Virus record (IMG/VR): IMGVR_UViG_3300031867_000008
Span: 76,957-140,956 of that record
Length of the DNA stretch: 64,000 nt
Direction: 5' to 3' (one strand)
Source of the DNA: a virus
Lineage: Duplodnaviria; Caudoviricetes
Part shown: positions 39,342 through 63,387 of the stretch, piece after piece
Numbering within the stretch: position 1 is the stretch's first letter
Layout of the letters: every line of letters begins with the position of its first letter
Notes under the pieces: model-generated
Database searches by the model: none
What the model saw: only the letters and a program-made list of their open reading frames with translations
Told to the model about the DNA's origin: nothing
Made by a program: the position numbers and the translations under genes

Positions 39342-40259
39342 TTAATTATTGTTCTGATCGTTCTGAGCGTTCATAGCGTTAATCTTCTGCTCTTTCCACA
39401 ATTGATACCTTTCTTCATTTACAATTGTAAAATGGCTTATGGTTGCAGTGACTATCTCTTTGTAACTGATCGTAGAGTTTGTTTTGCTATTGTTTATATC
39501 CTCTGTTGCAAACACTCTAAAAAATTCCCCAGCTTGTATTATATTTGAAGAATTAAGTTTTATATTTGCTAATTTGTTAAGCATTCTTTTTATCGTTTTA
39601 ACATTCATTTTTTTTAGAATGTAATATTGGTCATTATAAGACTTGACCGTTCCTTTTTTCTGATTGTTAGCCCTTACATAAGTTGTTGCAGTTGCCAAGA
39701 GCATTATTTTATCTTTTATCAGTTGATTGTCTATCTTTACACCATTCGGCAATATAAATGTGTTCGTTATGTTCTTCGCAAAAATATTCGTTGCCTGCTC
39801 ATCGCTGCAACCGTAGTAGAGAAGATAGCCATATACTTCGGCAATCAAAAAATAGCTGGAATAATCGAAATCTCTCTTCTTACCATATGCGGCAATAGCT
39901 TTTTTAAATTCATTATATAATTCATTAGGATCAAACACGTAATTACTCTTACCCGAATCAATGACTGCCTTTTTTATATCGTTTTCGTTCAATAAATTGT
40001 ATTGAGGTCTTTTACAAAAAACTCTAAATTCGTTTATGAGTTTTCGGTCTTTACTATAGCATTCATAACTCACACGGTTTTCTTGAATGAATACCTCGTT
40101 AATCTCTTGCTCGTTGAAGTCCAACAAGCTACGTTTCTTATCTTTTTCGTATCCTGCAAAGATGTTGAATAATGCTTCTGCTCGTTTTTTTCGATGATCC
40201 TTTGTCAAATAGTTATTGATAAAATCTTCTTTCAACTCTTTATCATAAATTATTTTCAT
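39342..40259 (-). CDS. MrpR/YopR-like repressor (degenerate tyrosine-recombinase fold)
   Basis: N-terminus YDKELKEDFI...LFN.FAGYEK...RSLLDFN..EI and LLYYG core recall the SPbeta master repressor family; no R-K-H-R-H-Y catalytic set. Confidence 0.55.
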   Translation of the reverse strand: MKIIYDKELKEDFINNYLTKDHRKKRAEALFNIFAGYEKDKKRSLLDFNEQEINEVFIQENRVSYECYSKDRKLINEFRVFCKRPQYNLLNENDIKKAVIDSGKSNYVFDPNELYNEFKKAIAAYGKKRDFDYSSYFLIAEVYGYLLYYGCSDEQATNIFAKNITNTFILPNGVKIDNQLIKDKIMLLATATTYVRANNQKKGTVKSYNDQYYILKKMNVKTIKRMLNKLANIKLNSSNIIQAGEFFRVFATEDINNSKTNSTISYKEIVTATISHFTIVNEERYQLWKEQKINAMNAQNDQNNN

Positions 40260-40431
40260 TTTTAAAAGCCTACCTTTCATGTTAAAATGTCGGCAATAAT
40301 TCTTACACAATTATATAAGTATATACTTATAGTCTTGTTTATAATTATATACCAAAATAAGTAACAGTTTATAGATAGACTTTTATATAATGAAAAAGTA
40401 TGTTTTAAATGCTTGTTAATTGTGTTATAAT

Positions 40432-40836
40432 TCAGCAAATTCCGACCTGAACTAATATTTTTTCATTGACAACATTCATTATTTCCGTAGGCAACGCACC
40501 AATGCAATTACGAAGTCTGCTTTTGTCAACGGTACGCATCTGTTCGACCACAAGGGTGGAATCTTTGGTTAATCCACCAGTTCCTTTCATTAAGGAAACG
40601 TGTGTAGGTATTGACTTCTTATGTGCAGAGGTTATAGGAACTACAAGCACTGTATTACTGTAATAATTTCCTTTATCATTTTGAACAATGAGGACAGGTC
40701 TAATTCCCTGCTGCTCAGAACCACACCCCTGACCTAAGTCAGCGATATACACCTGTCCTCGCTTAACTCGTTCACAATCCGCAAAGGATAAACTCGTTCT
40801 GTTCATAGCGTTTGTTGAAATTGTAGTGTTAGTCAT
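40432..40836 (-). CDS. mazF: PemK/MazF-family endoribonuclease with no adjacent MazE
   Basis: VKRGQVYIADL...GSEQQGIRPVLIVQND.GN..S..V.V.PITS, EQMRTVDKSRL. Confidence 0.93.
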   Translation of the reverse strand: MTNTTISTNAMNRTSLSFADCERVKRGQVYIADLGQGCGSEQQGIRPVLIVQNDKGNYYSNTVLVVPITSAHKKSIPTHVSLMKGTGGLTKDSTLVVEQMRTVDKSRLRNCIGALPTEIMNVVNEKILVQVGIC

Positions 40837-41891: not shown

Positions 41892-42797
41892 TTACTTTAT
41901 GGAAGAAATGTCAGGCAGTTTATTCTTGTTGCGATAATTGTAAACATCACAGATTGCCCTAACTACTCTATCTGTTTTGGTGAATGCGGCACTATCACTG
42001 TAAGAAGCCTTTACGATTTCAGCAACAGGCTTTTTGGAAAAGACTTTTACAAATTTATTTCTGTCAAACTTATCTCCGTAAAGATGGAAGAACTCACCCA
42101 TACCACCAATGAACGTTGCGCTGATTGAATCCTTATCATCTTTCCAAGTTTCTTTCATGAGTTTAAGCATTACGTTTGTGTTCTCTGAGCCTATAAGGTC
42201 GTATACCTTTTCAAAAGTGCTGACACACAAGATTCTTCTTTTACTGGTTGTCTTATCATAGTTCTTGCTTGTTGCAAGTATATAGCCTGCATCTGCACAA
42301 ACGTTAATCATGTCTTTTGCCTTGCTATCATATTCTTTACGAGAAGTCATGTGTTCTTCGGGTGTAAGTTTGGCACAGTTTTCATACTGCTCGTTGTAAT
42401 AGGCAGCTTCATCATCATAAGTAAGACCTGTGAGAACTCTTGCTGTAACGATATAATCTTCTCCAAATAACATTCTTAAAACTGTAAGAGTATGCTGTCC
42501 ATCAACCACATAATACTTACCGTTGCGCTTAGATACTACAATAGGCTTGACCTTATTCTTGTCGAACTTGCGAATGATTGACTTAATACGACTATCCTTT
42601 GTGTTCCTCTGATAAGGTGCGCTTAGAAGCATTTTTGCAGGCAGTTTTCTTATCTCCATGTCATCGCTCTTAGGGAAGTTGAGTTCTGTTGTCTCAGTTC
42701 CACTGTTGACATTAGATGTGGTGTCGTTCTTAATGGGTCTTGTCCCAGAGGGATCGAACTTTGCACTTACCTTAGTTCCTTTGATTACTGATTTCAT
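41892..42797 (-). CDS. ParB/Srx-fold protein (DUF6551-like)
   Basis: YQR....RI..I...FD...V.PIVVS.RNGKYYVVDGQHT. Confidence 0.75.
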   Translation of the reverse strand: MKSVIKGTKVSAKFDPSGTRPIKNDTTSNVNSGTETTELNFPKSDDMEIRKLPAKMLLSAPYQRNTKDSRIKSIIRKFDKNKVKPIVVSKRNGKYYVVDGQHTLTVLRMLFGEDYIVTARVLTGLTYDDEAAYYNEQYENCAKLTPEEHMTSRKEYDSKAKDMINVCADAGYILATSKNYDKTTSKRRILCVSTFEKVYDLIGSENTNVMLKLMKETWKDDKDSISATFIGGMGEFFHLYGDKFDRNKFVKVFSKKPVAEIVKASYSDSAAFTKTDRVVRAICDVYNYRNKNKLPDISSIK

Positions 42798-42836
42798 TTG
42801 TAAATCCTCCTAAAATTTTAAAATTTTTATGTCACA

Positions 42837-43814
42837 TCACAACTCGAAATAGTCAGTGATGTAATTGGCAAATTGTTTAATCTCGTCAAGAAGTTGACAA
42901 GCTATTTGTTTACTTTGTATGGTGATTTTTGGCTTACTTTCTTCTTCGATAGTATTACTTACCGAAAGTATAGCACTCCTGATATTGTCAATGGATAAAC
43001 GAGCTAAGTCTATATCGTTTAAACTTCTGTCTCGTTCTTCGTCATGCAAATCATCAATATAATCTTGAAGTGTTTTTGCTTCCTGTGTAGGACTATCATT
43101 TTCATTTATTGTTGCACATCTTTGACTTATCCTATGGATTCTGCGATAGAACTCACCCTTACAGGAATACTGTTTACGTATTTCCTCACGTTCTTTATCA
43201 GTCCATGAGTCAATCTGATTTACGAATCCGTTGCGCCTTATCGTAGACACCGAAATGTTATCCAACAGAATGTATAAGCATTCCAAATCATCTATTCTGC
43301 CCTGTTCTTCCAGTTCCCACATTTTTCTACCCACTAAGATATAATCTTCGTAACATTTCGCACACAGCAAATTGTTACTATCGTCTTTCTTGATTGAAAA
43401 TATATTTGGGAGATAAGGTAACAATTGCTTTCCTGTCAAATACATATCATGACCTTTTGGGTATGCTTTGCGGTAGCTTTCATAATACACATAAACAGCT
43501 TTGCAAAGTTCTTCCTTTGAACAGTCTCTATGATCGTAGTTCTTGATTATCTCTACTATAACTTCATCGTCATTTGAGCAATTGCACTTTGTAGCTTTGA
43601 TTTTTCCAAAGCCCTTAGCACCATTGTTATGAAGCTGTGCAAACGCTCTTACAGTATCAATGCCAGCTATGACATTATTATTAGTGTCAACCACTATTGG
43701 AGTATAATCGTTTTTATCCTCAGTGAGAGCGTTTATAAGTTCCGAAATGTCACGTTCATTGTAGATACGCTCATAAATATCGGGTATCTGTATCTCGTCT
43801 ATCGACAACTTCAT
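42837..43814 (-). CDS. Degenerate ParB N-terminal-domain protein
   Basis: MKLSIDEIQIP...ISELINAL......PIVVD.NNNVIAGID.VRA, without the canonical GxxR; start placed at ATG 43814. Confidence 0.55.
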   Translation of the reverse strand: MKLSIDEIQIPDIYERIYNERDISELINALTEDKNDYTPIVVDTNNNVIAGIDTVRAFAQLHNNGAKGFGKIKATKCNCSNDDEVIVEIIKNYDHRDCSKEELCKAVYVYYESYRKAYPKGHDMYLTGKQLLPYLPNIFSIKKDDSNNLLCAKCYEDYILVGRKMWELEEQGRIDDLECLYILLDNISVSTIRRNGFVNQIDSWTDKEREEIRKQYSCKGEFYRRIHRISQRCATINENDSPTQEAKTLQDYIDDLHDEERDRSLNDIDLARLSIDNIRSAILSVSNTIEEESKPKITIQSKQIACQLLDEIKQFANYITDYFEL

Positions 43815-45105
43815 GACGCTCATCTCCATTCTCTCCGTTAGTTTGCACATTATTATCATCTCCAACTGTGTCACTATCACTTACTACACTGTCATTGTCT
43901 GTTATATCATCAGTAACATTTGTCACATCAACGTCACTTATTATTTCAGTTTCGACTTCTTCTTCTTTGCTTTCGTTCTCGATCTCATTCAGGAAAGAAT
44001 AATCACCATTCTCCCAATCAAAATCGTCACCCTTGATTTCTTCCACAAGATCACACATTTTGTCACCAACCACATTTATAAGAGTTTGACAAATGATGTT
44101 TACTCTCGCTTCAACTTTCGTTTTCTTAGTAGTACCTTCCTTACAACCTTTTTCAGTGTACTCTTTCTGATACGTTTTAGTAACCCACTTGTAAAGCCAT
44201 TCCTCAAATTCTTCCTCACTAAATCTGCACTTAGCTACATTATGGAACAACAGCTTTCCACTTTGAATATTAAGGAATACTTTCATGCACATTACTAACG
44301 CTGGAATGTGGAGTTTTTTCAGATAAGATACACATTCTTCATCAGCAGGATAGTATTCATCGAGCTTGTTAAGTAACAGAGCAAGTTCATCAAGGTCTGA
44401 ATCCTTGTAATTATCCTTATAATACTCAGCAAACTTTATTATATCAGGCGAACCATAAGACTTAGTTTCATAGTCAGTCAACAGCATTAAGCACTCCAAA
44501 GCTACACCAAGTTTAGCATCTGTTTTACTGTTTGCAATTGAAGGAGCGCACCTATCCCAGAAAGGCAGATTAAGAATCTTTTCATCAAACTTCGGAGCAA
44601 TCTGAGTTCCGAGTGCCACTTTCGCTTTCTGCGTGGGCTTGAATGAAGTGCCACTGTTCAGACGAAGGAACTGTTCTTCAAGTTGTTCTTCATCATAATT
44701 AGTGATCTGAATTACTTCAAGAGTATAATGCAATATGAGAGTTTGTATTTTTTTATCAAGTTCGGAAAACTTTTTTCCTGCTACATCGTAAAATTCTCCT
44801 TTGTAATAAACAGGCTCAAAGGTCTTAGCCAATTTCCACTCATCATCAATGAATGAAAATATTGTACTTGTTCTCTGCTTACCATCAATGATTGTCCAAG
44901 TTCGGTCTGTGGGAGTGTCATTCACTATCACCCAGATTGAAGGTATAACAAAATTTCTAAGCATACTATCAATAAGAGCGTTCTTCTGCCCCCGATTCCA
45001 CTGTCCACCATCACGTTGTAAAGCATAATCGTCATTCATTTCACCATCATTGTGCATATTATAAAGTGATTCGATTGAATTTCTCACCAGTACAGTCGCT
45101 TCCAT
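43771..45105 (-). CDS. DUF262 (GmrS/ParB-like NTPase) domain protein
   Basis: LQR..GQW...QK..LIDSML....IP, IIDGKQRTSTI, F.RLNSG. The AAGGAG RBS and the promoter place the start at ATG 45105. Confidence 0.85.
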   Translation of the reverse strand: MEATVLVRNSIESLYNMHNDGEMNDDYALQRDGGQWNRGQKNALIDSMLRNFVIPSIWVIVNDTPTDRTWTIIDGKQRTSTIFSFIDDEWKLAKTFEPVYYKGEFYDVAGKKFSELDKKIQTLILHYTLEVIQITNYDEEQLEEQFLRLNSGTSFKPTQKAKVALGTQIAPKFDEKILNLPFWDRCAPSIANSKTDAKLGVALECLMLLTDYETKSYGSPDIIKFAEYYKDNYKDSDLDELALLLNKLDEYYPADEECVSYLKKLHIPALVMCMKVFLNIQSGKLLFHNVAKCRFSEEEFEEWLYKWVTKTYQKEYTEKGCKEGTTKKTKVEARVNIICQTLINVVGDKMCDLVEEIKGDDFDWENGDYSFLNEIENESKEEEVETEIISDVDVTNVTDDITDNDSVVSDSDTVGDDNNVQTNGENGDERHEVVDRRDTDTRYL

Positions 45106-45147
45106 TTTTATTATCTCCTTTCGGGATTTAGGTTTTTCATTGATATA

Positions 45148-45176
45148 ATTATAGCACATCTGCTCATGGTTGTCAA
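45148..45176 (-). promoter_or_regulatory. Sigma-A promoter for the DUF262/ParB operon
   Basis: TTGACA (45171-45176)-17 bp-TATAAT (45148-45153). Confidence 0.85.
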
Positions 45177-45195
45177 CAACCCTGAACATGATTGT

Positions 45196-45266
45196 TGTGA
45201 ATAATTTGTAAATTTTAAGCATCAACCAATTAGCAACTTGACACAATCTGCATTATAAGATATAAT
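45196..45266 (+). promoter_or_regulatory. Sigma-A promoter with upstream box, driving the RHH gene
   Basis: TGTGAATAATTTGTAAATTTT at 45196; TTGACA (45238-45243)-17 bp-TATAAT (45261-45266). Confidence 0.85.
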
Positions 45267-45289
45267 ATAATATAAAAGGAAGTGATTAA

Positions 45290-45517
45290 ATGCCGCATGG
45301 TCAAATCTCATCTCATAAAACTCGCACAGGAATTACACTTACCAAAATTTTAAAATCCGAATTAGAATATCTTGCAAAACAAGATCATCGAAGTCTTAAT
45401 AATTATATGGAAATGGTTCTCACCGATCACGTTGAGCAGCAACGTAAACTTGGTAAACTGCCAGAGAAGATTGAGCAGGAGAGTTCTGATAATAGTTCCA
45501 ATAATGATAATTCTTGA
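45290..45517 (+). CDS. Ribbon-helix-helix (Arc/CopG-like) regulator
   Basis: RTGITLTK.LK.ELE.LAKQD.RSLNNY.E.VL. Confidence 0.8.
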   Translation: MPHGQISSHKTRTGITLTKILKSELEYLAKQDHRSLNNYMEMVLTDHVEQQRKLGKLPEKIEQESSDNSSNNDNS

Positions 45518-45546
45518 CAAAAGAGTTTTTTCGATTCTAATACAAA

Positions 45547-45617
45547 TGTGAATAATTTGTAAATTTTCTGAAAAACTATTGAAAAGTGTTGACAAATTGC
45601 TGTTATTAGTGTATACT
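45547..45617 (+). promoter_or_regulatory. Promoter of type III TA cassette 1
   Basis: Same 21-bp box at 45547; TTGACA (45589-45594)-17 bp-TATACT (45612-45617). Confidence 0.85.
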
Positions 45618-45635
45618 AATATTAGGAAGAATACA

Positions 45636-45775
45636 CCTTCCGAGAACAACGGCGAGAATATTGTTCATGTGTATGTTTGGTCTCCGAGAGCAACGGGACT
45701 TGAATTTAGAATATTGCTCATGTTAGATGTTTAGTCTCCGCGAATGACGGGACTTGAATTTAGAATATCATTCAT
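45636..45775 (+). ncRNA. Type III antitoxin RNA 1 (TenpI-like), about 2.7 repeats, 54-nt period
   Basis: Units GTCTCCG-loop-CGGGAC...AGAATA at 45680 and 45734 plus a shortened first unit. Loop/downstream pairs GAACAA-TTGTTC, GAGCAA-TTGCTC and GAATGA-TCATTC covary (H-type pseudoknot). Confidence 0.88.
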
Positions 45776-45778
45776 TAT

Positions 45779-45810
45779 TGAAGCTCTATGATTTTCATAG
45801 GGCTTCATTC
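45779..45810 (+). terminator. Hairpin/terminator between antitoxin 1 and toxin 1
   Basis: TGAAGCTCTATGA-TTT-TCATAGGGCTTCA. Confidence 0.8.
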
Positions 45811-45830
45811 TATAATAAGGGGAAACGTAT

Positions 45831-46355
45831 ATGAAAATTATTTCTGTGACAGATGATCTGTTCGATTTACTAAATGACCAAGAATTATTACATAATAAAA
45901 ATCGTAGACCTCATGTACTCATATTAAAATTAACGTATAAAGAAACAAAAATAAACTTTGCTGTACCATTCAGATCGAATATTCCACCAAATGCAAACAA
46001 ATTATTTTATTTTTCAATGCCACCTCGTCCAAGTACCAAACCGAAATATCGTCATGGATTACACTATATAAAAGCGTTTCCCATAACAAGTGAATATTAT
46101 ACTAAGTGCAACATTGATGATAGTAAGTATTATGAAACTATTAGAAAAATAGCTAATTAAAAACTAACAGAAATAATACATGGTATGCAGCATTATTTAG
46201 AATTATATGAGCAAGGTTTACGAGAAAAATATTGTGTTGATATTGATAGCGCAATAAAAAAATTAAACATAACTCTTTTTAATAATGCTCAATACACAAT
46301 ACCCAATTCTGTTGCAGCTATTTCGGAAACTGATAATTCCAATAATTTAATATAA
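45831..46355 (+). pseudogene. Type III toxin 1 (TenpN-like) interrupted by an in-frame TAA at 46158-46160
   Basis: ELLHNKNRRPHVLIL...FAVPFRSNI...GLHYIKAFPI. The same frame continues 64 codons after the stop (KLTEIIHGMQHYLELYEQG...VDID) to TAA 46355. Confidence 0.8.
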
Positions 46356-46362
46356 TGAATTT

Positions 46363-46423
46363 TGTGAATAAATTGTAAATATTTTTTAAAAGTATTGACA
46401 ACTGGTAGATTATAATGTATAAT
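46363..46423 (+). promoter_or_regulatory. Promoter of type III TA cassette 2
   Basis: Box TGTGAATAAATTGTAAAT at 46363; TTGACA (46395-46400)-17 bp-TATAAT (46418-46423). Confidence 0.88.
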
Positions 46424-46451
46424 AAATATTAGAAAGAGGAAACTCTATCTG

Positions 46452-46545
46452 TTGTCGCACCACGATAAGCGACTAATAAATTGTCGTGCGCTAAATGTTT
46501 TGTCGCATCATAGTACGCGACTAATAAATTACTATGTGCTAATTT
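46452..46545 (+). ncRNA. Type III antitoxin RNA 2 (CptI-like), 2 repeats, 48-nt period
   Basis: GTCGC-loop-GCGAC-TAATAAAT at 46454 and 46502; the loops CACGATAA/TTGTCGTG and CATAGTA/TACTATG covary. Confidence 0.9.
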
Positions 46546-46546
46546 G

Positions 46547-46573
46547 AAGCCCTGTTCGCAGGGCTTTTCTTTT
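46547..46573 (+). terminator. Intrinsic terminator between antitoxin 2 and toxin 2
   Basis: AAGCCCTG-TTCG-CAGGGCTT-TTCTTTT. Confidence 0.88.
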
Positions 46574-46585
46574 AGGTGAATAGTC

Positions 46586-47038
46586 ATGTTTGCTGGAGAA
46601 TTTTACTTTATTGATAAATCATACGCTGAAAAATACAGCAATGGAGAAATAATGATTAACCCAAAACGTCCTTATATGTTCGCTTTTGTTCAGAATGGAT
46701 TGTTTTGGTTTATACCTATCACTTCCAAGGTCGAAAAGTTTGAAACCATTCGTAATCATAAAATTATAAAATATAAAAAGTGCGACACTATTGATTTTTC
46801 TTATGTGTTGGGGCATAAGAAAGCTATTCTAATTCAGAACATGGTTCCTATAAGATATGAATACATAAAAGAACAGTACACAGACGATCAAGACAATCCG
46901 ATCAGACTACCTTTAAAAGACGAGCGCAGAATTATCAATAACGCCAAGAAAATTCTTGCACTTCATCGAAAAAATCCAGTTTATATTTATGGAAATGTGC
47001 TTGAAATAGAAAAAGATTTCAATACATTACCTATATAA
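46586..47038 (+). CDS. cptN: Type III toxin 2, CptN family endoribonuclease
   Basis: G.FYFID, RPY.FAF, WFIPITSKVEKF, CDTI, A.LIQNM.PI...YI...Y match CptN; repeats and terminator upstream. Confidence 0.9.
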   Translation: MFAGEFYFIDKSYAEKYSNGEIMINPKRPYMFAFVQNGLFWFIPITSKVEKFETIRNHKIIKYKKCDTIDFSYVLGHKKAILIQNMVPIRYEYIKEQYTDDQDNPIRLPLKDERRIINNAKKILALHRKNPVYIYGNVLEIEKDFNTLPI

Positions 47039-47039
47039 A

Positions 47040-47101
47040 TATGAACAAATTGTAAATATTTTCTAAAAATAGTTGACAAATCATATACTTTGGTGTATAA
47101 T
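47040..47101 (+). promoter_or_regulatory. Promoter of type III TA cassette 3
   Basis: Box TATGAACAAATTGTAAAT at 47040; TTGACA (47073-47078)-17 bp-TATAAT (47096-47101). Confidence 0.88.
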
Positions 47102-47137
47102 AAAAATGTAAGGAAATACCTTTACTATATCGCTGAT

Positions 47138-47241
47138 GATGATGTGTGACGGTTCTGACACATCGGTAAAATAAAAATTGACCGAGCGTAGATGATGTGT
47201 GACGGTTCTGACACATCGGTAAAATAAAAATTGACCGAGCG
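47138..47241 (+). ncRNA. Type III antitoxin RNA 3 (TenpI-like), 2 identical 51-nt repeats, 53-nt period
   Basis: GATGATGTGTGACGGTTCTGACACATCGGTAAAATAAAAATTGACCGAGCG at 47138 and 47191; stem GATGTGT/ACACATC, loop CGGTT pairs with GACCG. Confidence 0.9.
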
Positions 47242-47253
47242 ATGAATTACTTT

Positions 47254-47290
47254 GAGTGAGGTTGACGTTTGTTGACCTCACTCTTTTATT
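47254..47290 (+). terminator. Intrinsic terminator between antitoxin 3 and toxin 3
   Basis: GAGTGAGGTTGAC-GTTT-GTTGACCTCACTC-TTTTATT. Confidence 0.88.
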
Positions 47291-47302
47291 AGGAATGATT
47301 CT

Positions 47303-47899
47303 ATGAACTACAATTTTGACTATGAGGTTTACAAACTCTCTGCAAAATTCTACAATGATTATCCACACAACCAATACCCTGAAATATTGGAAAAGCCCAC
47401 AAGAAGATACAACTGTATTTTAGTAGACATAAACACAGATTATTTTATTTGTCTGCCTTTTCGTTCTGACATGAGACACCAGAATGGTTATAGTTTTAAG
47501 AAGTCCAAAAGAAGTAAACACCATAGATCAGGAATTGATTATTCAAAAATGGTCATAATCAAAGATACAAAGTATCTTGAAAAAGGTGCAATCGTTGATA
47601 CCGATGAATATAAGGAAATGGTTCTAAATATCAATACCATTGTTAATGATTCCGTTGAGTATTTATTGAAATACATCAATCATAAAAAGGGAATTTCTGT
47701 ACTACATGAAAGACAATACCAGAGATTATATGGCTTATCTTCACTGCCTTATTTTGACTTAATCATAATTGAGCCTGATATAAACAGCTCATATAAAATA
47801 AATGATAAAAGCAGTTCGACAAACAATAATAATGTTTCTCCATACGCTCTTGCTGTATCGGTAGAACAAAATCAAAGCACATCTTCAAAGTTTACATAA
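47303..47899 (+). CDS. tenpN: Type III toxin 3, TenpN family, with a low-complexity C-terminal tail
   Basis: LS..FY.DYP...YPEILEK..R.Y, LPFRS.M.H, SGIDYSKMVII.D..Y, VD..EY, Y..SSL.YF. Confidence 0.88.
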   Translation: MNYNFDYEVYKLSAKFYNDYPHNQYPEILEKPTRRYNCILVDINTDYFICLPFRSDMRHQNGYSFKKSKRSKHHRSGIDYSKMVIIKDTKYLEKGAIVDTDEYKEMVLNINTIVNDSVEYLLKYINHKKGISVLHERQYQRLYGLSSLPYFDLIIIEPDINSSYKINDKSSSTNNNNVSPYALAVSVEQNQSTSSKFT

Positions 47900-47947
47900 C
47901 CTATTTTAAATAACTTATCGACATCTCCTAAATTCTAAACCTTTTTT

Positions 47948-47987
47948 TGAGAAAGAGTGTATCTTCGGGTATGCTCTTTCTCTGTTT
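47948..47987 (+). terminator. Hairpin/terminator after the TA array
   Basis: GAGAAAGAGTGTATC-TTCG-GGTATGCTCTTTCTC with a C(UUCG)G loop; the wobble pairs work on the plus-strand RNA. Confidence 0.75.
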
Positions 47988-48103
47988 ATAAATATATCAT
48001 GTTCAAAGATGATAGTCAATGCAAAATATTTTCCAATAAGTAAACCAAAAGCAGGAACCACAAAGCTCCTGCTTTTTATTATAGTTTATGTTTTTTATAG
48101 TTT

Positions 48104-48163
48104 AACGAGCCGTGAGCAAGAAGTCCCCCACCTCTAAGCGAAGCGTAGGTCGGGGTGGTTGAC
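48104..48163 (+). mobile_element. Orphan IS200/IS605-type end (no transposase or tnpB adjacent)
   Basis: GAAGTCCCCCACCTCTAAGCGAAGCGTAGGTCGGGGTGGTTGAC subterminal hairpin plus GTTGAC terminus. Confidence 0.6.
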
Positions 48164-48305
48164 GATTATAATTGTTCAACTTTTTTAAAACCTTACGTAA
48201 TTACAGCATTTTTTACATTTTCGCCCTATCCCTTTTTGATTATTCAGACACCCTCTTTCCGCGTAAGTCGGAAAGGCGAGGGTTGGTAAGGGAAACGCCT
48301 TCCCC

Positions 48306-48533
48306 TTACAGTGTCACAACATTTGCTAATTTATTTTTTCTCTCACTATTTCCATTCCAAACAGCAATAGCGCCGAGTATTGTAGACCTTGCTTCACTGT
48401 TCTTAGCTACTGTTTGCTGACAATTTTGACAGCGTATTATGTAGAGATTTTTATTATCTCCTACGGTTTCTAATTTTCCTTTGCCACCACAAAAAGGACA
48501 GGATTTTATATTATAGTATACCATGTTTGCCAT
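48306..48533 (-). CDS. Lar-family restriction alleviation-like Zn-finger protein
   Basis: IKSCPFCGG...IRCQNC...AIAVWN. Confidence 0.75.
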   Translation of the reverse strand: MANMVYYNIKSCPFCGGKGKLETVGDNKNLYIIRCQNCQQTVAKNSEARSTILGAIAVWNGNSERKNKLANVVTL

Positions 48534-51673: not shown

Positions 51674-52579
51674 TTATATCTTAGTCCTTGCTATTCCCAT
51701 AGCTATCGAATTAGCTATCTTCCCAAAGTTGTCAATCTGCTTTACTATTTCGGGTTCTTCTTTTATACAGTCAGCATAAACCTCACGAGGAAGATTCTTT
51801 GCAACAATACCCATTTCTTTTGCGCCCCAGTTTTCGGGTAATATTCCCTCATCAACCAATTTTAAAAGTATCTTGTTTACACGAGCCTCAGTTACAATAG
51901 TTTCAGCAAGTGCTTTGTCTGCTTCGAGTTTAGCGAGAACGTCTGCGTCAGTCTGCTTAATTTTATTATGCTTGTGTGCCTTCGTTTCTACAAACTGCTC
52001 GCCAACTATTTTCAGATAAAACGGCTGACGACCATTAGAATCGTTAAGACGAGTTTGATTCTTGACAACGATTCCTTCCCCATATTCGCCGCCGAGTTCA
52101 GTCTTTCCAACAAAACTTATGCAATGTTCCCACGACTGAAACTCCCCCGTATAGAAGATCGGAACATAAGTTAAATCAAGTTTTGTTGCTATCTCAATGG
52201 CTTTTTCCTGCGGCAAATATTCACCCCTGTCTAAATCATAAAGATCGTAAGCGTAGAAGTTACCGTATTTATCATCGGGATATGGAACAGCATGAGATAC
52301 TAACCATTCTCCGAACAGGCAAAGATTGTCTCCGAGAATGTCTCTGACCTTATTTATATCAAGCCCTTGTGTAAACTCGAAGAATCCTCTGAGAGTATTC
52401 GTTGGGGTTAGAATCTGTTTTCTGCTTTGTGCAACAATGGAATCAGTCTCCCCGTCATAACGAATGGCTGCATTTGCACCATCAATTTTTTCTTCGATAT
52501 AGATTAAGTCTCCCTTCTGAAAACAAGACGAATTGTTTTCCTTTATTCTTTCAATATCCATAAATTTCTTGTGATACAT
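51674..52579 (-). CDS. RNA ligase (Rnl2-like nucleotidyltransferase)
   Basis: EEKIDGAN (motif I), LFGEW, FYAYD, EGIVVKN, LKIV. Confidence 0.88.
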   Translation of the reverse strand: MYHKKFMDIERIKENNSSCFQKGDLIYIEEKIDGANAAIRYDGETDSIVAQSRKQILTPTNTLRGFFEFTQGLDINKVRDILGDNLCLFGEWLVSHAVPYPDDKYGNFYAYDLYDLDRGEYLPQEKAIEIATKLDLTYVPIFYTGEFQSWEHCISFVGKTELGGEYGEGIVVKNQTRLNDSNGRQPFYLKIVGEQFVETKAHKHNKIKQTDADVLAKLEADKALAETIVTEARVNKILLKLVDEGILPENWGAKEMGIVAKNLPREVYADCIKEEPEIVKQIDNFGKIANSIAMGIARTKI

Positions 52580-59810: not shown

Positions 59811-60057
59811 AAATAATCATTCCTTTCATTCATTATCTGTTTTTTCTGATCGCATCTTCGAGAAGGGCAAGCAAATAATACAGCCCTAAACCAACTATCC
59901 AAAGCATTCAATCACTCCCCTTTCATTGAGTATTTATTATGTAATGGACACCAATACAAGCTCATGCACTTGCGTAGGTGTTGTCTGCCGTATTGTAAAG
60001 CCCCGACAGTAAGGGTTTATGTGTTGTGGTATTCCGCTATTGTATGAACGTTCAAGG

Positions 60058-60282
60058 TTAGTTCTTTTTCTTAACATTGATTGTCATAGCATCTATGTCA
60101 TCTATGTAAAACCGTTCAACTTTTGCCGTTTTCCATTCTTCGTGCAGACCATCATCAAGTGTCATGTAGTGAGAAGTCGTGTCTATTTCCACATTATTTC
60201 CCACATCATACAGCGTGAGATTTATTTCCTCTCCACCATACATTTCAAGAAACTCTTTAACCGTCATAAGATCACGCTCCAA
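60058..60282 (-). CDS. Hypothetical protein
   Basis: 74 aa. Confidence 0.6.
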   Translation of the reverse strand: MERDLMTVKEFLEMYGGEEINLTLYDVGNNVEIDTTSHYMTLDDGLHEEWKTAKVERFYIDDIDAMTINVKKKN

Positions 60283-60285
60283 TTC

Positions 60286-60510
60286 TCACAGAAATATTTT
60301 AAATGTACCATCTTCTTTGTAAGTCTCTATCCATTCATTAACAATCTGTTTAGCCTGTTTACTTGACTCACAGATCATGACAACATTAGCACCTTCCCTT
60401 TTCCGCTTTTCGCAGTAAGGTATTAAGTTATCGCTTCCAGAAACTTGACCTACATACGCAGACCTGAAACCGTTCTTTTCTACATTGATCGCTAAGTAAT
60501 AATTTTTCAT
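60286..60510 (-). CDS. Hypothetical protein
   Basis: 74 aa. Confidence 0.65.
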   Translation of the reverse strand: MKNYYLAINVEKNGFRSAYVGQVSGSDNLIPYCEKRKREGANVVMICESSKQAKQIVNEWIETYKEDGTFKIFL

Positions 60511-60713
60511 ACTGATTCCACCTTTCTAAAAGCCCAATACATTCTTATTAAGCGTTCTCTCCGCTTACTCAACTTACAATTGAAACGTTCCATACCATTC
60601 CGCATATCACGCTCACGCAGACAAACGAGCTTATTATAGGATTCCTTTGCGTTCATTGGTGTATGCGGCATATACAGACATTCACGTCCGAAGTCACTGT
60701 TATAGTATTTCAT
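60507..60713 (-). CDS. Hypothetical protein
   Basis: 68 aa, AAGGAG RBS. Confidence 0.65.
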   Translation of the reverse strand: MKYYNSDFGRECLYMPHTPMNAKESYNKLVCLRERDMRNGMERFNCKLSKRRERLIRMYWAFRKVESV

Positions 60714-60728
60714 AAATCAACACTCCTT

Positions 60729-60941
60729 TCAAACACTATCCACGTACTTGACAAAAGCCCATCTGCGCTTTGTCTGTCTTACTTCATAACCGTTATCCTT
60801 ATTCCATACCTTACCAGTTTTCTTATTGATAACACTTGTGTTGTCATCGGAAATGATACAGTTAGTAGTGTAATAGAATTCGTTAATCATCTGTTCAAGT
60901 TCCTCTCGCGTAGGCGCACTCATAATAGTTACTCTTTTCAT
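60729..60941 (-). CDS. Hypothetical protein
   Basis: 70 aa, AAGGAG RBS. Confidence 0.65.
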   Translation of the reverse strand: MKRVTIMSAPTREELEQMINEFYYTTNCIISDDNTSVINKKTGKVWNKDNGYEVRQTKRRWAFVKYVDSV

Positions 60942-60956
60942 GTCAAATACTCCTTT

Positions 60957-61163
60957 TCAATACATTTCAAACTCATACACCGAGTTCATGAGCCATTCAT
61001 TATCTATAAATTCCTCATGCAGCTCGTCAAGAACATCACGCCAATTTGAGGGAGCATTGTATGTGCTGGCAAGCTCTCCCATCAAATCACTTGCTATTTC
61101 CGCAAGTTCTAAATTCTGTTCTTCACTTGCCATAATAAGCAATCGCCTAATAATGTCTTTCAT
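60957..61163 (-). CDS. Hypothetical protein
   Basis: 68 aa, AAGGAG RBS. Confidence 0.65.
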   Translation of the reverse strand: MKDIIRRLLIMASEEQNLELAEIASDLMGELASTYNAPSNWRDVLDELHEEFIDNEWLMNSVYEFEMY

Positions 61164-61516
61164 AAATCAGCACTCCTTTCAATAATAAAAACAAATCCAT
61201 CATAATAAGTTATCGCAAAACCCAAATGATCTATTATCCAATCTTTGAAGTTATCATCATAATAATTCAAAGTCTGTTTTAGTATACCCCAAACACTTTC
61301 AATAAATTCTTTCCAGCATCCAGATATTCCCTGACATACTGCCTCCGCAATAACAACAGGATCGTCTGACATAGAACTTATAACAGCAAGAAATTGCACA
61401 CGACCAGTATTATTTCTTTCCACTACTATACAAGCCTTATTTGTCTCATAATTGCTGAATACCTGATAAAAATTTCTCGCGTTCTGTTCACGTTCCTTTT
61501 TTGTAATTCTTTTCAT
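61160..61516 (-). CDS. Hypothetical protein
   Basis: 118 aa, AAGGAG RBS. Confidence 0.7.
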   Translation of the reverse strand: MKRITKKEREQNARNFYQVFSNYETNKACIVVERNNTGRVQFLAVISSMSDDPVVIAEAVCQGISGCWKEFIESVWGILKQTLNYYDDNFKDWIIDHLGFAITYYDGFVFIIERSADL

Positions 61517-62827: not shown

Positions 62828-62938
62828 GAGTTTTCCTCCTCATCATCGTCATATACATAATCGTCATCGTCATCATCGTCAAGACGGTCAATCAAAGCGT
62901 TAATAAACTGTTCCATGCTCATTGTGGGTCACTCCTTA

Positions 62939-63262
62939 TTACACATTCTCATAAGTTCCGATTGTGTAATCATATCCGCTAATGTTGATTATCATTTCAC
63001 CATTATCTGCATACTTGACCTTTTTTCTTTTCTCAAACATTCCGATAGTTTTGTATATTCTTCTGTTTTCCTTTTCAGAAAAGACCACATCACAAACTTT
63101 TCTAAACTGAACATTAGCATAATATCCAGTTATTCCCGTTACTATGAACGAATCTATTTGCCGCTTCCAGCCGTCATTGTCTGTCATAGTTCTTTGTTTG
63201 TCAAGCCATTTTTCCGACTTGTCAATGTTTACTTTGTATACTTTGTTCTTGATGTTCTCCAT
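62939..63262 (-). CDS. Hypothetical protein
   Basis: 107 aa, AGGAGG RBS. Confidence 0.7.
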   Translation of the reverse strand: MENIKNKVYKVNIDKSEKWLDKQRTMTDNDGWKRQIDSFIVTGITGYYANVQFRKVCDVVFSEKENRRIYKTIGMFEKRKKVKYADNGEMIINISGYDYTIGTYENV

Positions 63263-63387
63263 AGTTCATTCCTCCTATTAGTTGCAGTTCCGTTTACTTC
63301 TTATGTAATAGTACACTTTCAATCCTCATGCGGATAGATCGTGTATAAGTAGCGGAGATTTAAGGCTCTCCGCTAAAGCCTGTTAAA

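Follow-up and report, generated by a model that had tools for sequence, protein, structure and literature searches.

We analysed a 64,000-nucleotide (nt) stretch of viral DNA, in the following called the window, and found that it carries three consecutive modules with the architecture of toxin-antitoxin (TA) systems of type III. The window comprises bases 76957-140956 of the record IMGVR_UViG_3300031867_000008 (Duplodnaviria; Caudoviricetes), a 140,956-bp IMG/VR virus with direct terminal repeats that is rated 100% complete. We consider it likely that the array comprises three type III modules that are separate from one another and occupy a variable accessory slot, that these are exchanged at a box-promoter element, and that they serve the defence of the carrier or the retention of the phage. 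At the level of sequence, there is good support for an identification as type III modules that lie in a swappable slot; concerning their role we lean only slightly to one side, as discussed below.

The array forms an island at 45238-47987 on the plus strand. It starts with a gene for a ribbon-helix-helix (RHH) protein, followed by three units of promoter, tandem RNA repeat, hairpin terminator and toxin gene. The order typical of type III TA systems, i.e. promoter, tandem repeats, Rho-independent terminator and toxin open reading frame (ORF) on one strand, was thus found three times. A first-pass annotation of the window had described three such units with periods of 54, 48 and 53 nt behind an RHH gene, which our analysis bore out. 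It had also called the array the only plus-strand island. The genes around it are indeed mostly on the minus strand and the array itself is on the plus strand, yet it may not be the sole such island given further plus-strand ORFs at 60019-61185 and 62915-63337. The toxin ORFs have lengths of 150-198 codons and each is preceded by a ribosome-binding site. Three of the four plus-strand sigma-70 promoters match the consensus at 12/12 positions and one (cassette 1) at 11/12. A scan for terminators (hairpin plus T tail) returned 5 sites compared to 1.1 expected from shuffled sequences. The features are, in order:

45196..45216, plus strand: copy 0 of the box (TGTGAATAATTTGTAAATTTT), located upstream of the RHH gene's promoter
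45238..45266, plus strand: promoter of the RHH gene, 12/12
45290..45517, plus strand: RHH (Arc-like) protein of 75 aa, encoded by the first gene in the island; match to a PHROG Arc-like repressor (E 1.2e-5) and a weak RelB-like match
45547..45567, plus strand: box copy 1, identical to copy 0 at 21/21 nt
45589..45617, plus strand: promoter of cassette 1, 11/12
45640..45779, plus strand: antitoxin RNA 1; TRF period 54, 85% matches
45780..45806, plus strand: terminator hairpin 1; weak T tail, seen by folding only and missed by the pattern scan
45831..46355, plus strand: toxin 1, distant TenpN-like, interrupted by an in-frame TAA at 46158-46160
46363..46383, plus strand: box copy 2, upstream of the cassette 2 promoter
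46395..46423, plus strand: promoter of cassette 2, 12/12
46447..46542, plus strand: antitoxin RNA 2 (CptI-like), 2 x 48 nt, 75% identical
46546..46567, plus strand: terminator 2, hairpin with T tail
46586..47038, plus strand: toxin 2, predicted CptN-family endoribonuclease of 150 aa (NCBIfam CptIN model, PDB 4RMO)
47040..47060, plus strand: box copy 3, at the start of the 868-bp cassette 3 (47039-47906)
47073..47101, plus strand: promoter of cassette 3, 12/12
47138..47243, plus strand: antitoxin RNA 3 (TenpI-like), 2 x 53 nt, 100% identical
47254..47283, plus strand: terminator 3, hairpin with T tail
47303..47899, plus strand: toxin 3, predicted TenpN-family endoribonuclease of 198 aa (NCBIfam TenpIN model)
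47949..47982, plus strand: terminator closing the island, opposed by a minus-strand terminator at 48076-48047

The toxins were assigned using the curated NCBIfam models CptIN (NF047359) and TenpIN (NF047358), which have a cut-off of 90 bits each. Toxin 2 scored 124.6 bits with the CptIN model and toxin 3 scored 152.2 bits with the TenpIN model, both being above the cut-off. Toxin 2 additionally matched the solved structure of CptN (PDB 4RMO) with an E-value of 3.5e-13. Toxin 1 reached 40.8 bits with the TenpIN model and five other members of its family 41-47 bits, all below the cut-off. A P-x-[R/T]-S motif is present in all three proteins (P46-F-R-S49 in toxin 1, P44-I-T-S47 in toxin 2 and P52-F-R54-S55 in toxin 3). 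The motif of toxin 2 aligns with the 'IPLSS' segment of CptN, for which Ser52 has been named as an active-site residue (PMC13682666). In TenpN the residues R55 and S56 matter for activity (PMC13682666), and sequence comparison shows that toxin 3 retains this Arg-Ser pair that the studied TenpN needs. The different subfamilies proposed by the first-pass annotation thus turned out to be CptN, TenpN and a distant TenpN-like branch below the cut-off, with no ToxN among them: the only match to the Pfam family ToxN_toxin was toxin 2 with 19.4 bits (cut-off 25), PADLOC returned only a weak AbiQ match for toxin 2, and a six-frame search of the whole 140,956-bp genome revealed no member of the ToxN family. 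Further type III toxins beyond these three were not found in the genome.

For toxins 2 and 3 the ratio of non-synonymous to synonymous substitution rates (dN/dS) amounted to 0.05-0.25 and 0.16-0.19, respectively, which indicates that both are under purifying selection. Relatives were sparse in several searches. Single-protein scans of viral contigs gave none for toxins 2 and 3, and those of metagenome contigs likewise none for toxin 2. Using tblastn against GenBank phages we obtained no match for toxins 1 and 2 and only two Listeria phage records for toxin 3, while a sequence search of the PDB provided no match for toxin 3 or the toxin 1 family.

Toxin 1 belongs to a distant TenpN-like family. 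A profile comparison (hhalign) of this family gave a probability of 90.5% with toxin 3 and no match with toxin 2. For the intact relative P0001 we obtained an AlphaFold structure model from the family alignment (pLDDT 84.6). Its five best PDB matches were 4RMO, 2XD0, 7D8O, 4ATO and 4GLK, i.e. CptN, three ToxN structures and AbiQ, with probabilities of 0.99-1.00 and TM-scores of 0.58-0.68. According to this model, the toxin 1 family is a separate branch homologous to TenpN with a predicted ToxN/CptN-type fold. The family turned up on 21 viral contigs and, among species-representative genomes of bacteria, at 504 places, such that a widespread RNA-toxin family is defined here that current models score below threshold.

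In the window, toxin 1 itself is broken, and the claim of the first-pass annotation that all three units are complete does not hold. The in-frame TAA divides the reading frame into 109 aa and a remainder of 65 aa. P0001, found on contig L006, is an intact protein of 174 aa with 95% identity to toxin 1 and has Glu (GAA) at the position of the stop; D, S or K occupies this position in other relatives. Family-invariant residues are still encoded downstream of the stop, and the truncated protein would miss the final three helices of the model. Judged from these comparisons, the TAA arose by a recent nonsense change, provided that this single record contains no assembly error at this position. A reading of the TAA as a recoded codon was rejected, given that TAA terminates toxins 1, 2 and 3 and that the relative has GAA at this place.

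The three antitoxin RNAs were characterized separately. Between the three repeat families a repeat finder detected no similarity, confirming that they are mutually unrelated as previously noted. An Rfam search of 45000-48500 at a permissive threshold returned only matches at chance level and no antitoxin family. RNA 1 consists of a short unit at 45640-45666 followed by 54-nt units at 45673-45726 and 45727-45780, each of which can fold into an H-type pseudoknot with the pattern CCG-N7-CGG ... AGAAUAU-N5. This motif (CCG-N7-CGG ... AGAAUAU plus the loop complement) is located upstream of the toxin gene in 95 out of 105 loci of the family (L013-L113). In an alignment of 34 distinct units, selected by the invariant letters alone and not by the covarying ones, 98.3% of the cells were paired and 8 of the 12 pairs exhibited compensatory changes, compared to 37-50% pairing in controls with a slid register. 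The cassette-1 RNA is therefore, as far as covariation can tell, a pseudoknot with both helices covarying. TRF detected repeats upstream of only 3 of 96 loci of the toxin 1 family, and an ungapped self-similarity scan was too insensitive: the RNA often comprises a short unit followed by one long unit and is thus overlooked by tandem-repeat finders.

In RNA 2, the first stem (GUCGC/GCGAC) is common to both units. Unit 1 has CACGAU/GUCGUG as its second stem and unit 2 has CAUAGU/ACUAUG, which corresponds to three compensatory pair changes. RNA 3 contains a 7-bp stem and an A-rich linker, and its loop CGGUU is able to pair with GACCG. Two compensatory changes were found for its first stem in a bacterial homologue (L170, see below), while the second stem is unproven because it is invariant. 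The type III TA architecture recognized in the first-pass annotation is thereby upheld, since toxins 2 and 3 pass the CptIN and TenpIN models, and the toxin 1 family combines the predicted fold with a covarying pseudoknot RNA.

To describe the slot, we compared the window with related phage contigs. Its left border in the relatives is the gene for a DUF262/NsnA-like protein, homologues of which border the slot in L007 and L173. The content of the slot differed between the contigs as follows:

L173: same left flank as the window (DUF6551, ParB-like, DUF262); slot with a pair of RHH genes, a single cptIN cassette and a module of promoter, RNA, terminator and HTH_26
L174: RHH, then cptIN
L169: RHH, then cassette 3 directly
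L175: cptIN, then the sequence that comes after cassette 3 in the window
L006: cassette 1 whose toxin is intact, same box-promoter, different repeat RNA
L007 (139.5-kb relative): PemK-like gene, RNA-HTH module, then toxIN behind the same box-promoter

In L175 cassette 3 is precisely absent, corresponding to an indel of 868 bp (47039-47906) that is bounded by ATAA on both sides. The toxIN cassette of L007 comprises repeats of 38 nt, a terminator and a genuine ToxN, which scores 125 bits with Pfam. Homologues of the RHH gene occupy the equivalent position in L169, L173 and L174. A third large relative, L009, has different genes next to the flanking marker and was uninformative on the slot. In the relatives, the slot junctions fall at the common box and promoter. 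Since the contents differ between relatives, the slot is a hotspot and the unit of exchange is a cassette headed by the box-promoter. The cassette-collecting hotspot with modular acquisition that had been proposed from the window alone is thus recovered in seven related contigs, which hold different cassette sets with junctions at the box-promoter. From these junctions we infer that recombination at the box would be the route of exchange.

Three further observations concern cassettes on these and other contigs. In L006 (700-841) a repeat RNA with units beginning UUUCCGCUU replaces the cptI repeats, and the contig ends before any toxin gene. At L007:7343-6947 (minus strand) and L173:7470-7865 a consensus promoter is followed by a structured RNA of ~130 nt, a terminator and a 74-aa HTH_26 gene. 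The HTH_26 proteins of L007 and L173 are 92% identical despite the different neighbours (PemK-like versus cptIN), and the module resembles a further mobile cassette with a layout like that of type III systems. Finally, a homologue of cassette 1 at L005:3810-6500, the RNA of which is 99.3% identical (141/142 nt) to that of the window while the toxin is 76% identical, adjoins two serine recombinase genes on a 14-kb contig. The cassette-1 module thus also rides on an integrative element.

The box is a 21-nt element (TGTGAATAATTTGTAAATTTT and variants) that precedes all four promoters of the island. The shared upstream box of the first-pass annotation is therefore present, though its count has to be corrected to four copies, one of them before the RHH promoter. 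Within the 140,956-bp genome the box core GAAYAAWTTGTAAA is restricted to the island. A weaker copy of the core (ACAAATTGTAAAA) was seen at 21064-21004 on the minus strand, 32 nt upstream of another consensus promoter, which faces a cluster of methyltransferase genes at 17-21 kb. Outside this genome, a 16-mer (TGAACAAATTGTAAAC) together with a consensus promoter recurs in other phage contigs (L143:505-4533, L167:5905-6894 and others), some of them distantly related. There it occurs sometimes two or three times within 4 kb and precedes mostly unknown small genes. Its distribution suggests that the box is a wider regulatory or recombination element. The box holds tandem TGTRAAT half-sites spaced 11 nt apart, and in L173 TTACAA repeats are located before the cptIN promoter, such that the box may be a candidate operator of the RHH protein. 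Coordinated control, which had been proposed earlier, through the RHH protein is weakened by L007, which has the box but no RHH homologue, and is therefore one possibility only. Box copies before promoters of unrelated genes in other phages likewise speak against the box as the RHH operator.

While the architecture was directly observed, the working steps of the array are inferred from ToxIN, CptIN and TenpIN. Host RNA polymerase would initiate at the consensus promoter and transcribe the two or three repeats. The hairpin terminator would halt most of the transcripts, and with most transcripts ending there the RNA would therefore be in excess over the toxin. The endoribonuclease toxin, presumably employing its P-x-[R/T]-S active-site motif, would cleave the repeats into single pseudoknot units, which in turn would bind the toxin and block it. 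Once transcription of the element stops, the RNA would be depleted and the RNase freed. Between related phages the modules would be exchanged whole by recombination at the box-plus-promoter heading every cassette. In cassette 1, the toxin would have been lost to the nonsense codon and the RNA kept.

What such an array does for its carrier has to be weighed from several sides. It has a moron-like setting with its own promoters and terminators on the strand opposite to its neighbours, and among these neighbours are DUF262/NsnA-like, DUF6551, PemK and Lar genes. The intact and apparently selected toxins, the moron-like layout and the defence-type neighbours favour carrier defence, retention or both. 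We regard it as marginally more probable than the opposite that the array protects the carrier cell from rival phages, helps to retain the phage genome, or does both; the slot would then be a hotspot for defence or addiction genes on a phage. Regarding retention, the genome encodes one large serine recombinase as well as tyrosine recombinases, therefore a temperate or episomal life is possible.

A number of observations weigh against this reading. Toxin 1 is broken, therefore at least one of the cassettes does not form a functional TA pair in this genome. The phage recombinases may instead be parts of insertion elements. A search of 399 genomes sampled from one bacterial class revealed no prophage copy of the phage and returned only distant polymerases (32-47% identical). 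In other phages the box stands before promoters of unrelated genes and is therefore not specific to the modules. The RNA segments are 90-99% identical to those of distant loci where the toxin genes are only 71-78% identical (at the nucleotide level) with saturated synonymous sites. At a bacterial chromosomal tenpIN locus beside the S10 ribosomal operon (L170) the repeat is 98% identical to the cassette 3 repeat, while the toxin is only 57% identical. The abrupt shift in identity at the borders of the RNA points to recombination as well as to constraint. Lastly, other phages carry antitoxin RNA units without a toxin. Enterococcus phages of the genus Vipetofemvirus possess a single unit of the cassette-1 type after the major head gene (VFW, L002:2497-2545; the same in L004), and no toxin gene was found near it. 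Stem 1 of this unit shows a compensatory change. The Enterococcus faecalis conjugative plasmid pEFT30-2 carries a complete locus of the toxin 1 family (L176:1400-2108), the RNA unit of which closely matches the VFW unit; the two differ by a compensatory pair. By analogy, the VFW unit is a candidate natural antitoxin decoy like pseudo-ToxI. The gut phage MT835481 contains ~1.3 units of the cassette-3 type (TenpI-like) with no adjoining toxin gene (L003:2500-2575), in which the loop and its GACCG partner are retained and the stem is partly degraded. Conserved RNAs and phages carrying the RNA alone fit an anti-defence use at least as well as defence of the carrier.

In its pure form, such an anti-defence use would make the antitoxin RNA the selected product. 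During host shut-off it would supplement or replace the decaying type III antitoxins of the host, with early excess RNA being provided from the strong promoters, so that host abortive infection of the CptN or TenpN type never fires; the phage toxins would merely be carried along or would keep the RNA correctly processed. Besides the contrast between RNA and toxin conservation and the toxin-less units of both types, cassette 1 with its intact RNA and broken toxin is what would be expected here, as is the similarity of the VFW unit to the antitoxin unit of the plasmid locus, and pseudo-ToxI of PhiTE is the reported precedent. Yet toxins 2 and 3 are intact and under apparent purifying selection, and toxin 1 is intact in its closest relative. 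A pure decoy would need neither toxin nor terminator, as seen from the orphan units in other phages. Moreover, type III antitoxins are usually specific to their cognate toxin (PMC4627078), and neutralisation of a 57%-identical toxin would be hypothetical. Overall we hold this explanation for rather unlikely.

Carrier defence and counter-defence, which the first-pass annotation had put as alternatives (anti-superinfection arsenal or antitoxin library), are not mutually exclusive, and there is evidence for each. A cassette may be weapon and shield in one, and the slot an integrase-free exchange site operated by recombination at the box-promoter, though we would give this combination only a low probability. 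If it applied, phages of this group would build up changing stacks of RNA-antitoxin modules, with the RNAs staying nearly identical to antitoxins from chromosomal and plasmid loci of bacteria as the toxins diverge. The RNAs would disarm type III abortive infection of the host while the intact phage toxins exclude rival phages, and a toxin loss as in cassette 1 would be a step towards toxin-less decoy units.

Two further explanations are far less plausible than the preceding ones. The toxins could be RNases of the phage programme that are used in lytic growth, e.g. for degradation of host mRNA, with the RNAs acting as timers until takeover. The promoters fit host RNA polymerase, which would make early expression possible, and an RNA ligase encoded 4 kb off could repair collateral cuts. 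However, close relatives carry one to three cassettes of different families, and such free variation of the slot content is not expected of a core lytic step. To our knowledge there is no precedent for type III toxins as RNases of a lytic programme, and we consider this role very improbable. That the cassettes are passive cargo, i.e. selfish addiction modules that spread via box-promoter recombination with no benefit to phage or host, would agree with their occurrence as discrete indels and with the presence of the same families on plasmids, chromosomes and integrative elements, but is hardly credible in view of the purifying selection on the toxins and the reuse of the slot across divergent relatives beside other defence and anti-defence genes.

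Type III systems are usually studied as single bacterial anti-phage loci. Phage PhiTE reportedly escapes ToxIN, a system from Pectobacterium atrosepticum, via pseudo-ToxI (Blower et al. in PLoS Genet of 2012; ToxIN and this escape are cited in PMC5086642). The array resembles ToxIN in its promoter, repeats, terminator and RNase logic and, by way of the toxin-less repeats in VFW and MT835481, also the PhiTE case. It differs in that the window holds no toxin of the ToxN family and that whole modules rather than decoy repeats alone are carried. Defence hotspots of P2-like phages and P4-like satellites are said to have been described by Rousset et al. in 2022. Like these, the slot is fixed between conserved phage genes and has a varying defence-type cargo, but the cargo in the relatives consists mostly of type III cassettes that are stacked up to three deep and have common box-promoter heads. 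For T4-type phages, Arbiol et al. reportedly introduced promoter-stem-loop 'mobile regulatory cassettes' in 2010. The likeness here lies in short conserved regulatory sequences at the cassette borders serving as recombination joints for modular shuffling, while phage group and element are different, the cargo is TA modules, and the recombination at the box is suggested by the junctions.

Among the individual families, cassette 2 can be compared to CptIN of Eubacterium rectale (4RMO; PMC4627078, PMC3401426), whose two tandem repeats have 45 nt compared to 48 nt here. The RNA of cassette 2 can be drawn as an H-type pseudoknot in which the first loop is short and the second is rich in A, and a terminator lies between RNA and toxin. 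In contrast to CptIN, cassette 2 is phage-borne in the middle of a three-cassette array, and its repeats share only 75% identity, compared to the near-identity described for cptI repeats (PMC13682666). For TenpIN, a cryo-EM complex from Photorhabdus luminescens (PMC13682666) and a survey including viruses (PMC12283969) served as references; according to the latter, tenpN is already on record in viral genomes with 42 operons. Cassette 3 agrees with TenpIN in having two copies of a long repeat and in retaining the R-S pair. The RNA repeats of toxin 1 are non-identical, as described for many tenpI, but the toxin 1 family differs by its 41-47 bits versus the cut-off of 90 and by an own conserved RNA, the window copy of which has no Rfam match.

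Several type III loci of different families within one bacterial genome are known (PMC3401426), as is a plasmid-prophage toxIN of Clostridium phage D-1873 (PMC3401426), and reports of phage-borne type III modules have been limited to isolated cases (PMC3401426, PMC12283969). In the searched literature we found no account of cassettes stacked in tandem within one slot or exchanged at a common promoter element, nor of the contrast between RNA and toxin conservation. The component parts are known; what is new is their tandem, swappable arrangement. It characterizes a group of large phages with a slot dedicated to the stacking and swapping, as whole units, of modules from at least four toxin families (CptN, TenpN, distant TenpN-like, and ToxN in a relative). 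The slot provides naturally occurring RNA-toxin pairs, both cognate and non-cognate, for studies of specificity and cross-neutralisation, and the conserved RNAs next to diverged toxins together with the toxin-less units raise the question of whether phages use whole TA modules as counter-defence.

The phage encodes its own replication set, comprising a DNA polymerase, helicases, a primase, a RecJ-like nuclease and a clamp-like processivity factor, as well as an anaerobic ribonucleotide reductase. By polymerase, the closest isolate phages infect Firmicutes (~42% identity). The gene content thus suggests an anaerobic Firmicute as host, and the anaerobic host bacteria of this 141-kb phage are probably gut dwellers. 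The immediate surroundings of the slot contain the following genes and elements:

41892-45108, minus strand: three ParB/GmrSD_N-type genes left of the slot (DUF6551, an unassigned 323-aa protein, DUF262/NsnA-like)
43771..45108, minus strand: DUF262/GmrSD_N (NsnA-like) gene; Pfam GmrSD_N 51.5 bits, PADLOC NsnA E 3.5e-25
45176-45148, minus strand: promoter of the DUF262/NsnA-like gene, sigma-70 match 12/12
48306..48533, minus strand: Lar-family restriction-alleviation gene, bordering the slot on the right; 36 bits with Pfam Lar_restr_allev (cut-off 28.6)

With the ParB/GmrSD_N-type genes on one side and Lar on the other, the slot lies in a defence and counter-defence neighbourhood. Further to the left, a gene for a PemK/MazF-family toxin was found at 40432-40836 on the minus strand and scored 106 bits with Pfam. 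A protein antitoxin gene was not obvious beside it. Next to the toxin gene, at 39342-40310, lies a weakly matching MrpR-like recombinase, the 25.3 bits of which do not reach the cut-off of 27. The RNA ligase gene mentioned above is located at 51674-52579 on the minus strand (Pfam 90 bits), 4 kb away from the array of RNase toxins. RNA repair by phage T4 acts against damage by anticodon nucleases, and by analogy the ligase could mend RNA that has been cut by such toxins.

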